Shown: positions 27,779 through 60,392, counted from the first letter of the stretch. The stretch is DNA of 64,000 bases from a phage (GCA_008273105.1 GCA_008273105.1_4080.1); one strand, 5' to 3'. Notes: generated by a model from the letters alone, not told the origin. Made by a program: numbers and translations.

Positions 27779-28087
27779 TTATTCCTTGATATTGATTTTA
27801 ATATCTTTACCTTGTAAATCACGAATAGTTTTAATCAATGCGTCGTGTTTTAAAGCACATTCATTGTAGACTGCATCCCAACGAGTAAGTACTTTAAGAA
27901 TTTCTGCACCATCATAACCTTTAAAACCATTTTTGTCAATCATAATTTTTTGTGGTAGAGGTGTATCATCATCACATCTTTCTAACAGAATTTCTTGTTT
28001 AATTGGTGCGGGGGATTGTAGTTTTACTTGCTCGGCACACCCACTTATAATTAAAAAAGAAATCATTGGAACTAATAATTTTTTCAT
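27779..28087 (-). CDS. o-spanin-like outer-membrane lipoprotein
   Basis: MKKLLVPMISFLIISGC signal peptide with lipobox; immediately follows i-spanin-like gene. Confidence 0.6.
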   Translation of the reverse strand: MKKLLVPMISFLIISGCAEQVKLQSPAPIKQEILLERCDDDTPLPQKIMIDKNGFKGYDGAEILKVLTRWDAVYNECALKHDALIKTIRDLQGKDIKINIKE

Positions 28088-53355: not shown

Positions 53356-53907
53356 CTATAGATAACTAATTAGTAAGTTTTCTTTTTGAACCAGATACTC
53401 CAATTCTTGTTTTGCTGTACCGATGAAGTTCTGTGTCATAAGATTATTATATCCCGCTTCTCGATTTTGTCCCTTAGAATAACGCGAAATATGACATAAA
53501 TTTACACCAGCAACTTCTGCACTTGCATGTTTAGCATTAGTGTATCCATCTCTAATGTGTTTCAACTCGTCATAGGTTACTTCATAGCTAAAACTGTGAC
53601 TGTTTGCACCTGGGTAAATTTCAAAAGTTTTGAGTGGTCGAAGATGGGAAACAAAAATATTGTAATCCATTTCTTCTTGAACTTCACGACGCAACGCATC
53701 TTCTAGTGAGATATCAGTACTTTCTACGGTTCCACCACATCCACCAAGAAGACCATCCCATCGTAATTGCAGTAATACTAAATTTACTTCTGGTATATCA
53801 TTCAACTCATAGTTTTTGTAAGGGTTGCATTTTCTTGCAAAGAAATAACAAAATACAAAATTTGCACGTGTGCCATATTCACCAAAGGGAACTTCTTTAA
53901 CACTCAT
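53356..53907 (-). CDS. Nudix-like hydrolase (non-canonical spacing)
   Basis: GGCGGTVE...DALRREVQEE: REVxEE core present but the following Gly is absent and spacing is longer. Confidence 0.45.
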   Translation of the reverse strand: MSVKEVPFGEYGTRANFVFCYFFARKCNPYKNYELNDIPEVNLVLLQLRWDGLLGGCGGTVESTDISLEDALRREVQEEMDYNIFVSHLRPLKTFEIYPGANSHSFSYEVTYDELKHIRDGYTNAKHASAEVAGVNLCHISRYSKGQNREAGYNNLMTQNFIGTAKQELEYLVQKENLLISYL

Positions 53908-54662
53908 TTCATACGTTCCTTAATTATAGTCTCTAGATGCGGTATTGCTTTGGTTGCTGGCTTGATAACTTTTTCATTAAACAAAAAATCATTATCATTT
54001 TTACGAATGTTAACATTAACACTATAACATGGTAATGCTGCTGCTAATCTCGACCATACCAGTACTGTATCGCTACTACCAATTACAATAACTGTATCAT
54101 TTTCATTAAGAGATTTCAACACATTATTTCGTTCTTCGTAAATTGGTAAGCGAATACCATCAACATAACGATGATATTCTCCAATCATTACTACATTTGG
54201 TTTGGCAAAAACATCATGTTTTGGTATGTATGGTTCGTATCCGCAGTTAATAACATTATAATCATCAGAATTGATACTATAATTTTCAATAACTTCACAC
54301 AAGTTTCCATGAAGTTTAAGCTCATGACCACCAATACGAGTATAAAGATCGTCCATGTTAGAAGTCATATGAAGGAAGCAATCACCATATTGATCTTCTA
54401 ACGATTTTATAAAATAATGCATTGCATTTGGTTCGCATTGTCCCAATTTTACACGTAATGTATTATAGAAAGAATGAACAACATGATATTTTGTAGTTAA
54501 ACTAGCAATGTTACATACATCATTAATTTTAAATGTATCCCACAAACCATCATCAAATCGAAAAGGTTCCATACCACTTTCAACAGAAAGTCCTGCACCT
54601 GATATAATCAGTAATCGCTTTTTACCTTCATTGCTTATAAATTTTTCTGATATCATATTCAA
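53904..54662 (-). CDS. SIR2-family (sirtuin-like) NAD-dependent protein
   Basis: ISGAGLSVESGMEPFR, TSNMDDLY...LHG (catalytic His), KPNVVMIGE, VIGSSDTV match recalled CobB/Sir2 blocks. Confidence 0.75.
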   Translation of the reverse strand: MNMISEKFISNEGKKRLLIISGAGLSVESGMEPFRFDDGLWDTFKINDVCNIASLTTKYHVVHSFYNTLRVKLGQCEPNAMHYFIKSLEDQYGDCFLHMTSNMDDLYTRIGGHELKLHGNLCEVIENYSINSDDYNVINCGYEPYIPKHDVFAKPNVVMIGEYHRYVDGIRLPIYEERNNVLKSLNENDTVIVIGSSDTVLVWSRLAAALPCYSVNVNIRKNDNDFLFNEKVIKPATKAIPHLETIIKERMK

Positions 54663-54887: not shown

Positions 54888-55481
54888 TTAATATTTTAAA
54901 ACATCAAACTCTTCGCTTACGCTTGTTACATTATCACTAACAATTTTAAAAATTGATTTGATACGTTCGTGTAGTGGTTTTTTAGATTCGTTCTCAACTT
55001 CAATATATGCTTGCATTGCTGCAATTGCATGATATGTCCCACTACCTACTGCGGTAATTCTTGTTTTAGGTTGTAGTACTGAAAAGTCTTCTTGAACTTC
55101 ATAGATTGTATGATTGTGGAGAATGATAAATTGTCCACCACCTACATCTTGTGATGCATCTCGTGCACCCCATTCTTCTTTAAACATTTGACGAATGATT
55201 GGAATAACTTTAAGAACCAAATATTGTGAAAATGTTTGACTAGCATCTTGTTCAGGTAAATTAAGGTTATAATTTAACAACTGACCCATACGAAATGATG
55301 TAGTATAACCCAATGCCATTACTTCTTTAGTTCTAGTTAGTCCATCATCATGTAACTTGATAAATTCTTTCTCGAATACCTTTGGCTCAGTTTGAACAGT
55401 TTTTGTAAATCCATTGCTTCCTAACTTATCCCCAGCAATAAAAGAACTTACTCCGTCAGTGTGTGCAATAATACAGGTCAT
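54888..55481 (-). CDS. HslV/proteasome-like Ntn hydrolase
   Basis: From internal Met: MTCIIAHTDGVSSFIAGD... and V(L)QP...ITAVGSGTYHAIAAMQA align with recalled HslV; GGAG RBS and ATGA overlap support start at 55481. Confidence 0.6.
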   Translation of the reverse strand: MTCIIAHTDGVSSFIAGDKLGSNGFTKTVQTEPKVFEKEFIKLHDDGLTRTKEVMALGYTTSFRMGQLLNYNLNLPEQDASQTFSQYLVLKVIPIIRQMFKEEWGARDASQDVGGGQFIILHNHTIYEVQEDFSVLQPKTRITAVGSGTYHAIAAMQAYIEVENESKKPLHERIKSIFKIVSDNVTSVSEEFDVLKY

Positions 55482-55738
55482 AAAATAGCTCCAATTGCAA
55501 ATAATGTTGTGTATAAGATATAAATTAGTGCTCCTAACAACATTAGGCACACCAAGTATGAAGTTGATAGTACATAATAAATTATTGCTTCGAATTTTGA
55601 ATTGAACTTCATTGTAGTTGGATCAATAAAGCCATTACGATAATCTTTGTAAATGAAAACTGTTAGAAAAATAACTGTAGCATACATTACTACAGTAGCA
55701 TAAAAAATAATAGATGTCAAGTTTTGGATGTTTGTCAT
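55478..55738 (-). CDS. small multi-helix membrane protein
   Basis: 86 aa, three hydrophobic segments. Confidence 0.45.
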   Translation of the reverse strand: MTNIQNLTSIIFYATVVMYATVIFLTVFIYKDYRNGFIDPTTMKFNSKFEAIIYYVLSTSYLVCLMLLGALIYILYTTLFAIGAIL

Positions 55739-55808: not shown

Positions 55809-56417
55809 TTATTGTTTGACTGAACCGTAAAAAACCAGTTCTGGTTTTGTTAATATTACAACATCTTCACCACGAGAACGACTAACTCTAAATAGAACTT
55901 CTGGTGGGATTCCATTTGCTGCATATAGTGAAAAAAGGAAACCTACCTTTGTTGCCATTTCTTCGGTAAAAGTTGATAGCTGTCTTACAGACACAAATGA
56001 ATTATCACCATCAGTAACATTACTTTTAATCGAAATGTTATGAAGACCCAGTACTGAGCGATTTGTCATATATCGCTTTTCGGGAGATACACTAAAGAAT
56101 ACCACAGTACATGCTGAATTGCAATACCTAGAAACAATTAAATTTATCCCATTGTCTCTAACAAAGTTTGCCATTCGAATACCTGCATCAAAATCACCAC
56201 CAGGAGATGTAATTGTGATGGTATCATAGTGTTCTTTATCATACAACTCTATCATTCTCTTGAGTGACCCATCTGTAATATCTGATATGAAATATACATT
56301 TCGGGTTTCAGGATTATACTTTATCACATTTTTACTTTCAATACCAGCACTGGCTGGAAAATTTATTAACAATAGAAACATCGCTGCTTGTATCACTTCA
56401 AGCCATAGTCTTTTCAT
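55809..56417 (-). CDS. secreted ClpP/crotonase-fold serine-protease-like protein
   Basis: Signal peptide MKRLWLEVIQAAMFLLLINFPASA; ITSPGGDFDAGIRM, NSAC and LGLHN align with ClpP active-site blocks; GAGGA RBS before Met6. Confidence 0.55.
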   Translation of the reverse strand: MKRLWLEVIQAAMFLLLINFPASAGIESKNVIKYNPETRNVYFISDITDGSLKRMIELYDKEHYDTITITSPGGDFDAGIRMANFVRDNGINLIVSRYCNSACTVVFFSVSPEKRYMTNRSVLGLHNISIKSNVTDGDNSFVSVRQLSTFTEEMATKVGFLFSLYAANGIPPEVLFRVSRSRGEDVVILTKPELVFYGSVKQ

Positions 56418-56432
56418 ATAACAAGTCCTCAA

Positions 56433-56642
56433 TTTTGTTTAGGAAGATATAAATAATATAGTACTTAAACACTTAAGTCAAACTTTTTCTGTACTTAACT
56501 CAAATTTTTAAAAATAAAACTTAAGGTGTACAGTTTATAACAGATCATATCATACCACTGATGTTTTGTCAACTAGTTCATGGTGCATCTGATGTAAAAA
56601 ACAAATATATTTCATACTTATATTTAAAAAAGGAAATAAAAT
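56433..56642. promoter_or_regulatory. divergent AT-rich intergenic region, including plus-strand TATAAATA at 56448-56455
   Basis: 210-bp gap between divergently oriented genes; AGGAA RBS before plus-strand ATG. Confidence 0.4.
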
Positions 56643-57020
56643 ATGAAAGCTATCGCAGCACAAGGTAAACTACCATTCAATATCGGCGGGTTTTGTGTAA
56701 CCGCAGCTAATATAAACGGTGAATTGAAATATAACTTGAACATCTTTAATCAACGTTCTAGTTGTGTTTACGATCTCATTGATACTGATTTTAATGTTTA
56801 TCGTTTTGTAACTATCACTAGTTATGATAAAGATAAAATTAGATTAGATGCATCTAAAACAGCATTGGAAATTGCACCAACTCTAGCCAAAAACACTTTT
56901 TGTATTAAGATTGACGATAGTGCATTTGCCGAATCATTCCAGTTTCATAAAATTAAATTGAGTACTGGTGCGATGAAATATCACCCTTGGGATTTGTATT
57001 ATTGTAACCTCCCTGGTTAA
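56643..57020 (+). CDS. hypothetical protein; lone plus-strand gene (moron-like)
   Basis: 125-aa ORF with AGGAA RBS, own upstream region, ends at bidirectional terminator. Confidence 0.6.
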   Translation: MKAIAAQGKLPFNIGGFCVTAANINGELKYNLNIFNQRSSCVYDLIDTDFNVYRFVTITSYDKDKIRLDASKTALEIAPTLAKNTFCIKIDDSAFAESFQFHKIKLSTGAMKYHPWDLYYCNLPG

Positions 57021-59696: not shown

Positions 59697-60392
59697 TTAC
59701 ACCCACTCTTCTACACCGCCGCGACGCTTAACTAAGTACTTACCTTCTTCGTTACGTGGTCCAAGAATAATACCATCAATGAAACCATGTTCACCATATT
59801 CAAGTGCTTCTTCTGCATTTAACCACAAATCGCGGTCAGCATCTTTTAGTAATTGTTCATGTGATACACCTACAGCTTCTGCAATTTCTTTGGTCAACAA
59901 TGTATTCAGTGCATCAGAATGTTGTAGGGAAATCTTCTGGTCTGTAATTAGACCTTGTGTACCAGAACTTACTTGGTGACACATGAAGTATGAGCGTTTA
60001 CCACCTAAACGGAAACCTTTAGTCCCAATAACAGATTGTGTATAGCAACCCATTGATGCTGCATAACCCATAACTACAGTGCGAATTGGGGAAATACAAG
60101 ACTTAGCAACATCTGCAATACCCAAACCTGCGTGTACTGAACCACCCGGTGAACTAATGTAGAATGTAATAGGGGAATCACCTTGTGAGTCTAACCATAC
60201 CAATTGTTGTTTGATGATATGTGCCATTTGATCATTGAAATCAGTATCAAGGAAAATGATACGGTCTTGCATCATACGAGATGCTAGATCATATGTACGT
60301 TCTGAACCATTAACTTTCTCAACTACGTAAGGAATAGAAATGTTACGTACTTCGCCATTAGCATAACCACCAAACATGAATTGTTCAACCAT
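59697..60392 (-). CDS. clpP: ATP-dependent Clp protease proteolytic subunit homolog
   Basis: ISSPGGSVHAG, GYAASMG (Ser), MCHQV (His), DRD (Asp): catalytic triad appears intact. Confidence 0.8.
   Translation of the reverse strand: MVEQFMFGGYANGEVRNISIPYVVEKVNGSERTYDLASRMMQDRIIFLDTDFNDQMAHIIKQQLVWLDSQGDSPITFYISSPGGSVHAGLGIADVAKSCISPIRTVVMGYAASMGCYTQSVIGTKGFRLGGKRSYFMCHQVSSGTQGLITDQKISLQHSDALNTLLTKEIAEAVGVSHEQLLKDADRDLWLNAEEALEYGEHGFIDGIILGPRNEEGKYLVKRRGGVEEWV

Follow-up and report, generated by a model that had tools for sequence, protein, structure and literature searches.

The gene and its distribution

The 64,000-nucleotide stretch of phage DNA analysed here (GCA_008273105.1; hereafter, the window) contains on its minus strand an open reading frame of 202 codons plus a stop, which would encode the precursor of an exported peptidase with a ClpP fold. 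The ORF listing and the sequence place its ATG at 56417 and its stop codon at 55809-55811, and the coordinates given in the original prediction, 55809..56417, are exact. A ribosome-binding site, GAGGA, can be read 8 nt upstream of this ATG (56426..56430, minus strand). An alternative start, a TTG at 56432, lies within the ribosome-binding site itself, and thus, the ATG at 56417 is the better start.

The region surrounding the gene shows 100% identity to its counterpart in Escherichia phage vB_EcoM_CRJP21 and over 99% identity to those in PBECO4, phAPEC6, slurp01, SP27, and others. These phages belong to Asteriusvirus, RaK2-like jumbo myoviruses of ~350 kb. The 202-residue protein, which is gp097 in PBECO4, gp346c in phAPEC6, and phrog_26024 among the PHROGs, occurs with 100% identity in the genomes of about 20 Asteriusvirus jumbo phages. 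Identity is 92% for phage 121Q, 52-67% for other Asteriusvirus-like coliphages, 33-42% for phages A4 and EJP2, and ~37% for the Klebsiella phages RaK2 and K64-1 and the Xanthomonas phage XaC1; orthologues in more distant jumbo phages span 25-67%. In RaK2/K64-1, XaC1, and metagenomic jumbo phages, orthologues with 25-40% identity share the gene order. A locus search of IMG/VR with the alignment of close orthologues recovered phage 121Q alone. The match to phrog_26024 (E 3.6e-119) pairs residues 1-202 with profile positions 1-202, and the label of that profile, 'protease', is an annotation rather than a tested function. The GC content of the gene (34.6%) matches that of the window (33.7%), and therefore the gene is not a recent import.

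GenBank labels for the gene range from hypothetical protein and protease to ClpP/crotonase-like domain protein, head maturation protease, and Clp proteolytic subunit, and the naming is inconsistent across records OQ708376.1, OQ718158.1, PV654397.1, and PQ471515.1. The vB_EcoM_CRJP21 record calls it a 'nudix hydrolase', a name that looks shifted from a neighbouring gene. Three of the labels in use, 'head maturation protease', 'ATP-dependent Clp protease subunit', and 'nudix hydrolase', appear to be wrong for this gene and are correctable.

Gene neighbourhood and candidate promoters

The ClpP-like gene is the first of a leftward block, in which it is followed by an 86-aa membrane ORF and then by genes for an HslV-like peptidase, a Sir2 protein, a Nudix protein, and PhoH. 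Its position is conserved in PBECO4, K64-1, XaC1, and a 70-kb metagenomic contig: on one side is a divergently transcribed virion protein gene next to that of dCMP deaminase, and on the other are NAD, Sir2, and Nudix genes. The gene order of the 70-kb jumbo-phage contig matches that of the window: its upstream side reads ligase, metallophosphoesterase, ClpP, dCMP deaminase, and a divergent Big_2 protein, and the ClpP-like gene there is followed by NMNAT, NAMPT, Sir2, Nudix, and PhoH. On a second jumbo-phage contig, which carries another of the best matches to the protein, Sir2, PhoH, and dCMP deaminase genes are nearby.

Within the window, the downstream Sir2-like and Nudix genes occupy 53356-54662 (minus strand). 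In K64-1, XaC1, EJP2, and metagenomic relatives (loci L002, L003, and L007), genes for NMNAT(-Nudix) and nicotinamide phosphoribosyltransferase separate the ClpP-like gene from Sir2, whereas PBECO4-type phages have the membrane ORF and the HslV-like gene in this position. The NMNAT, nicotinamide phosphoribosyltransferase, Sir2, and Nudix genes look like a phage NAD+ salvage module.

Two more protease-like genes had been proposed in the window, and profile searches bear both of them out. ClpP (59697-60392, minus strand) is full-length, has the Ser/His/Asp motifs, and scores 141 bits with Pfam; with TIGR00493 it scores 151.6 bits, below the equivalog cut-off of 308.6. In the PBECO4 RefSeq record this ClpP is named 'head maturation protease', though phAPEC6 has a separate prohead protease, gp227c, of the T4 gp21 type. 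The HslV-like gene (54888-55481, minus strand) matches phrog_1040 (E 5.6e-25). Starting from the ATG at 55481, its protein begins M-T-C-I-I-A, so that loss of the Met would expose an N-terminal Thr like that of proteasome subunits of the Ntn-hydrolase type; a longer, GTG-started version of the ORF (55550) probably does not represent the real start. The TGA of the 86-aa ORF (55478-55738, minus strand), which encodes several hydrophobic segments, overlaps the HslV-like ATG at 55481 in an ATGA, suggesting translational coupling of the small membrane protein with the HslV-like peptidase. This ORF, for which there is no PHROG match, is missing from the annotation of the PBECO4 RefSeq record but present in that of phage A4. 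A pairing of the ClpP-like gene with the 86-aa ORF, in analogy to NfeD and stomatin, was considered and rejected: neither the K64-1 nor the XaC1 locus contains the ORF, which is instead coupled to the HslV-like gene.

The divergent intergenic region upstream of the ClpP-like gene is 225 bp. The gene on its other side (56643-57020, plus strand) encodes a 125-aa protein, phrog_33171, which is the phAPEC6 virion protein gp347; the equivalent position in K64-1, in XaC1, and in a metagenomic relative is occupied by a larger gene on the opposite strand, for a 'major tail protein' or a Big_2-domain protein. Two candidate sigma-70-like promoters can be read on the minus strand ahead of the ClpP-like gene. 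One, TTGACT-17-TATTAT (56453..56481), matches 10 of 12 consensus positions and lies 36 nt upstream of the ATG; the other, TTGACA-17-(TG)TATGAT (56544..56572), matches 11 of 12 and has an extended -10 TG. Both are suggestive only. A promoter consensus scan gave no excess of sites over shuffled AT-rich sequence, and consequently, it is only suggested that host RNA polymerase transcribes the gene early or midway through infection. Our literature search found no transcriptome for the Asteriusvirus group.

The ClpP fold and the predicted catalytic residues

Sequence similarity of the protein to curated protease families is real but below threshold. The Pfam model CLP_protease (PF00574) matches residues 59-129 only, with 17.5 bits (E 0.004) against a cut-off of 20.2; the NCBIfam ClpP models give 15-25 bits against cut-offs of 228-251, with PRK12553 matching at E 1.3e-5; and NfeD1b_N gives 13.5 bits against a cut-off of 40. 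Peptidase_S49 is not listed in the Pfam scan at E<=1, and TIGR00706 is not among the NCBIfam matches listed for the protein. A single-sequence search of the PDB returned only noise (alcohol dehydrogenase and GFP-like proteins, E >= 0.04). The best match in a profile search of the PDB is ClpP (E 0.007), indicating that no member of the family has a solved structure. Structure comparison, which used a predicted monomer model, does find the ClpP alpha/beta fold in the 202-aa protein. At the level of the predicted model, then, the ClpP fold that had been proposed is confirmed, and a long helix at residues 144-167 of the AlphaFold model resembles the ClpP handle.

The original prediction had described ClpP-like SPGG, Ser, and His blocks, and each of these is present and invariant in 23 homologues down to 25% identity. 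S71-P72-G73-G74 (56196..56207, minus strand), in which S71, G73, and G74 are invariant in 23/23 sequences, aligns with the SPGG of ClpP (MEROPS S14, PF00574) and is the predicted oxyanion-hole loop. The predicted nucleophile, Ser101 (codon at 56115-56117), is the center of C99-N-S101-A-C103 (56109..56123, minus strand), and in both the hhalign and the hmmsearch alignments it falls on the nucleophile of ClpP (A-A-S-M-G). In the same alignments, His126 (56040..56042, minus strand), the predicted general base, falls on the catalytic His, and like the Asn127 that follows, it is invariant in 23/23. The complete set of invariant residues is S71, G73, G74, C99, S101, C103, H126, N127, Y165, G169, and P171. 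From this conservation, we infer that catalysis would be carried out by Ser101 and His126.

The third member of the triad, as judged from the alignment, is degenerate. Asp185 (55863..55865, minus strand) adjoins the position of the ClpP triad Asp, which hhalign pairs with V186, one residue away. Because column 185 varies among the 23 sequences (D10 N7 E2 S2 K1 T1), the protein would have either a Ser-His dyad or a degenerate triad. The near-triad position is often Asn, and Asn is also present at the triad Asp position of ClpP1 of Listeria monocytogenes (LmClpP1), a Ser-His-Asn variant (PDB 4jcq). Thus, the proposal of a serine protease stands as far as Ser and His are concerned, both of which are conserved, and does not extend to the ClpP Asp. 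Given that the Asp is not conserved, the activity of the protein may be low or may depend on a partner.

The lack of a conserved Asp would also fit a ClpP/crotonase-fold protein that is catalytically dead or not proteolytic, serving as a binding protein, a decoy, or a small-molecule enzyme, and no reports of activity for the family were found in the literature. We consider such a protein quite improbable. Ser101, His126, and the SxGG loop are invariant down to ~25% identity, and the pattern that they form recurs in 141 of 148 distant representatives (see below), suggesting that the active site is under selection. In addition, CoA-dependent chemistry is, to our knowledge, implausible for an exported protein.

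There is no invariant Lys in the 23-sequence alignment, which excludes a Ser-Lys dyad of the SppA/NfeD type. SppA (MEROPS S49) is a larger, membrane-anchored enzyme with such a dyad, whereas the phage protein has an invariant His and no conserved Lys. NfeD/STOPP (Pyrococcus 1510-N, PDB 2deo/3bpp) has a Ser-Lys dyad, multiple transmembrane segments, a C-terminal OB domain, and a stomatin operon partner. None of these features is seen in the phage protein, with its 202 residues and single N-terminal hydrophobic segment, and there is no SPFH/stomatin gene among the annotated neighbours in PBECO4, K64-1, or XaC1. The protein also differs from ClpP proper: it is below the Pfam gathering threshold, the Asp is not conserved, and export is predicted. 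Where ClpP has an N-terminal segment for gating and ATPase docking, the phage protein has a signal peptide instead. Its fold and chemistry are familiar, and the alignments indicate that it would work like a ClpP-clan serine peptidase, as a member of an uncurated secreted SxGG-CxSxC-H family.

A feature that the original prediction did not mention is the invariant Cys pair around the nucleophile. C99 and C103 are the only two cysteines of the protein. In the AlphaFold model they are placed at the end of a strand (residues 92-100) and the start of a helix (residues 102-109), respectively. ClpP has A-A-S-M-G here, and a Cys pair flanking the Ser is atypical for ClpP. A C99-C103 disulfide across the nucleophile turn would be reasonable for an exported protein. 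In the literature searched, we found no description of the Cys-bracketed nucleophile, the export signal, or the phage setting.

The predicted N-terminal export signal

Codons 1-24 (56346..56417, minus strand) encode a predicted Sec signal peptide, MKRLWLEVIQAAMFLLLINFPASA, as judged from a heuristic scan, conservation, and the AlphaFold model. The N-terminus reads MKR-LWLEVIQAAMFLLLINF-PASA/G, where the slash marks the predicted cut. It consists of a positive n-region, an uncharged hydrophobic core of 13 residues, and an A-S-A site, in which Ala occupies -3 and -1; Pro precedes it at -4, and Gly follows it at +1. Cleavage by signal peptidase I is predicted and would most likely occur between Ala24 and Gly25. 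The call was made with a crude, hand-written rule (n/h/c regions plus A-x-A), along with conservation. By this rule, 8 of the 95 ATG-ORFs of >=80 aa in the window pass, and the ClpP-like protein has the highest score. The second-highest score in the window belongs to a 102-aa ORF (27779-28087, minus strand) that starts MKKLLVPMISFLIISGC/A, a lipoprotein-type signal with a lipobox-like ISGC.

Other properties of the N-terminus agree with this assignment. It contains the sole strongly hydrophobic 19-residue stretch of the 202-aa protein, and among the eight closest orthologues, F20, P21, A22, and A24 do not vary. An independent textbook signal, MKLLKYIVTVFIFTLSISSANA/G, which ends SSANA/G, is seen in the distant orthologue of XaC1. 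In the AlphaFold model, residues 2-23 form a separate, confident long helix, followed by a low-confidence linker to the domain and a short beta hairpin after the signal peptide. Tat export and lipoprotein sorting were rejected for this protein, as it has neither a twin-arginine motif nor a lipobox Cys. The proposed cleavable-looking signal peptide is thus upheld by its n/h/c features and PASA/G site, by the top heuristic score, and by its recurrence in orthologues and in ~89% of the wider family. We infer from these properties that the protein would be exported and cleaved, and because it has a secretion signal, it probably works in the host periplasm.

An uncleaved N-terminal helix would give a different protein, a type II peptidase anchored in the inner membrane with its ClpP-fold domain in the periplasm. 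Such an enzyme would do SppA/NfeD-like work at the membrane surface, with signal-peptide remnants and membrane proteins as possible substrates. The confident helix of residues 2-23 is consistent with an anchor. Within this helix, E7 and Q10 are conserved among the enterobacterial-phage orthologues, a conservation that exceeds what is usual for a disposable signal peptide, and the K64-1/RaK2 orthologue, which starts MFIVLKEFLYNTLIAFSLIFPSHD (..LIFPSHD..), has no A-x-A or other small-x-small cleavage site. Given these last two features, some orthologues may indeed stay membrane-anchored. However, the Asteriusvirus protein has a textbook P-A-S-A/G that is invariant in close orthologues, its uncharged core has only 13 residues, fewer than a stable transmembrane helix would usually have, ordinary cleavable signals are found in many distant relatives, and the Lys of an SppA/NfeD-type dyad is not conserved. 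An anchored peptidase is therefore unlikely, though well within what might be entertained. Whether the N-terminus is cleaved or anchored, the catalytic domain, given the predicted topology, would face the periplasm.

Virions and capsid maturation

Some of the GenBank labels imply that the protein is a cytoplasmic ClpP paralogue or a head maturation protease, whose hydrophobic N-terminus would be incidental, and a role in maturation was among those originally proposed. The ClpP-related phage prohead proteases (NF045542 and phrog_94) are likewise phage-encoded proteins with a ClpP fold, and there are weak matches to NF045542 (Clp_rel_HeadMat, E 3.8e-4) and to phrog_94 and phrog_1684 (E ~0.07). 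However, the scores are far under the cut-offs; for NF045542, 20.5 bits compare with a cut-off of 120. The ClpP-like gene is also outside the head-gene module: it is located among genes for nucleotide and NAD metabolism and not near those for capsid and portal.

Virion proteomics also argues against this role. Mass spectrometry of phAPEC6 virions identified 62 proteins, and gp346c, which is identical to the 202-aa protein, is absent from them (PMC7247149). Its neighbour, gp347, was found with 75% coverage (PMC7247149). The phAPEC6 prohead protease, gp227c, is of the T4 gp21 type, is encoded next to the capsid gene, was detected in the virions, and is listed among the head proteins together with gp225c, the major head protein, and gp226c, the scaffolding protein (PMC7247149). 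This phage group uses a T4 gp21-type prohead protease. For particles of the related phage CBB, only the ordinary ClpP and a 'major tail protein' are reported from this neighbourhood, and the ClpP orthologue, CBB_104, is represented by one peptide (PMC5259590).

Because gp346c is absent from virions and gp227c is a separate prohead protease, a role for the ClpP-like protein in capsid maturation is unlikely, and this part of the original prediction can be set aside. In addition, a bona fide ClpP is already present at 59697-60392, the signal-peptide feature is common to the family, and ClpP does not typically carry a conserved Cys pair. All in all, we regard a cytoplasmic paralogue or head maturation protease as very improbable. 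A comparative survey of jumbo phages mentions ordinary ClpP and no other ClpP-like protein.

A wider secreted family

Word-indexed homologue searches gave 13-43 proteins, and the wider family became visible only by an exhaustive HMMER search, which covered 1.84 billion cluster representatives. This search returned 1,889 proteins at E<=1e-3, 48 of them at E<=1e-10. The best ~15 matches are full-length, at 186-225 aa. The others are mostly 230-290 aa; they align only to query residues ~12-130, and their C-terminal half is different and longer. A ClpP-like C-terminal half is kept in the phage subfamily (186-225 aa) but not in the bacterial secreted proteins. The latter, SxGG-CxS(S/A)C-H proteins of ~230-290 aa such as WP_219172905.1 of Ferrimonas balearica, resemble the phage subfamily in the signal peptide, the motifs, and the first half of the domain.

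The motifs are nearly constant. Among the 148 family representatives examined, the best 148 of the 1,889, C-x-S-x-C is present in 147, and the whole S-x-G-G ... C-x-S-x-C ... H pattern is present in 141. The phage protein fits the spacing of this signature, ~24 residues from S-x-G-G to C-x-S-x-C and ~22 from there to the His. A hydrophobic segment is present at the N-terminus of 124 of the 139 single-domain representatives, compared to 21 of 95 ORFs in the window. By these features, C-x-S-x-C would define a family that comprises at least 1,889 sequence clusters, consisting mostly of bacterial proteins with a predicted signal peptide.

The family is uncurated. In a Pfam and NCBIfam scan of 11 members (the phage protein and ten relatives), none scored above a curated cut-off. 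Cluster look-up returned almost only unnamed metagenomic proteins, and those members that do have a name are called 'hypothetical protein' or 'ClpP class serine protease'. Neither the phage protein nor any of four bacterial relatives matched a defence system in PADLOC. In the literature, we found neither a characterised member of the secreted CxSxC family nor an experiment on any of its members, and nothing on the ClpP-like gene itself.

Three bacterial members (P0031, P0053, and P0104) have two tandem SxGG-CxSxC domains in a single polypeptide of 470-580 aa. E. coli SppA also has a tandem-domain architecture, and by this analogy, the tandem domains hint at ring-type assemblies. Another relative, P0172 (222 aa), is encoded on a metagenomic contig of 66 kb, where its gene follows a DegP/HtrA-like Trypsin-PDZ-PDZ gene (L010 4465-6669) after 15 nt. 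Its placement fits a context of periplasmic proteolysis, as a single case; the neighbourhoods of other bacterial relatives (Rhizobium and marine contigs) are mostly uninformative.

Proposed activity in the periplasm

The reading that we favour, and consider reasonably probable, is that the gene encodes an ATP-independent periplasmic peptidase with a ClpP fold, which is exported by Sec, cleaved after Ala24, folded, and able to hydrolyse its substrates by means of Ser101 and His126. The host Sec system would export the precursor, and signal peptidase I would cut after Ala24, leaving a ~20-kDa protein that is soluble in the periplasm and has the complete ClpP fold. In the oxidising periplasm, a C99-C103 disulfide would possibly brace the nucleophile turn. 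The Ser101-His126 pair, together with a ClpP-type oxyanion hole made up of the backbone of Gly73 and Ala102, would then hydrolyse peptide bonds in peptides, unfolded proteins, or particular envelope proteins. ClpP docks with a Clp AAA+ unfoldase in the cytoplasm, whereas the periplasm, where the phage protein is predicted to reside, has neither an AAA+ partner nor ATP. For this reason, its action is expected to be independent of ATP.

The peptidase may be made early or midway through infection, a timing proposed because its gene heads a leftward block behind sigma-70-like promoters, and it would then alter host envelope or periplasmic proteins. Among the phage proteins known to act in the envelope are lysis proteins, spanins, and exclusion proteins. 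Candidate targets are host proteins of the envelope or periplasm, with exclusion of secondary phages, receptor turnover, or conditioning of the envelope as the possible outcome. Both timing and target are conjectured from gene order and predicted location, and the roles that had been proposed at the outset, envelope remodelling and superinfection exclusion, are guesses.

A more specific version, which we consider unlikely, is that the protein is the first phage-encoded periplasmic protease: a disulfide-stapled, ATP-independent, ClpP-like ring that is made early and cuts specific host envelope proteins, either to block superinfection or to condition the envelope. A phage-encoded soluble periplasmic protease was not found in the literature searched. 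If this ring exists, its envelope targets could include receptors, porins, lipoprotein tethers, and periplasmic quality-control or defence factors, and the envelope would be conditioned during the long cycle of a jumbo phage. It would also provide a first function for the secreted CxSxC ClpP-like proteins of bacteria, a family with no fewer than 1,889 sequence clusters.

For the favoured reading of an exported and active peptidase, the consequence would be that jumbo phages of the PBECO4/RaK2 type edit the periplasmic or envelope proteome of their host by proteolysis. Periplasmic proteolysis of this kind would bear on superinfection exclusion, receptor turnover, and the timing of lysis in phages that are under development for therapy. 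The phage protein would also offer an experimental entry to a large secreted family in which a ClpP fold carries a Cys-bracketed serine.
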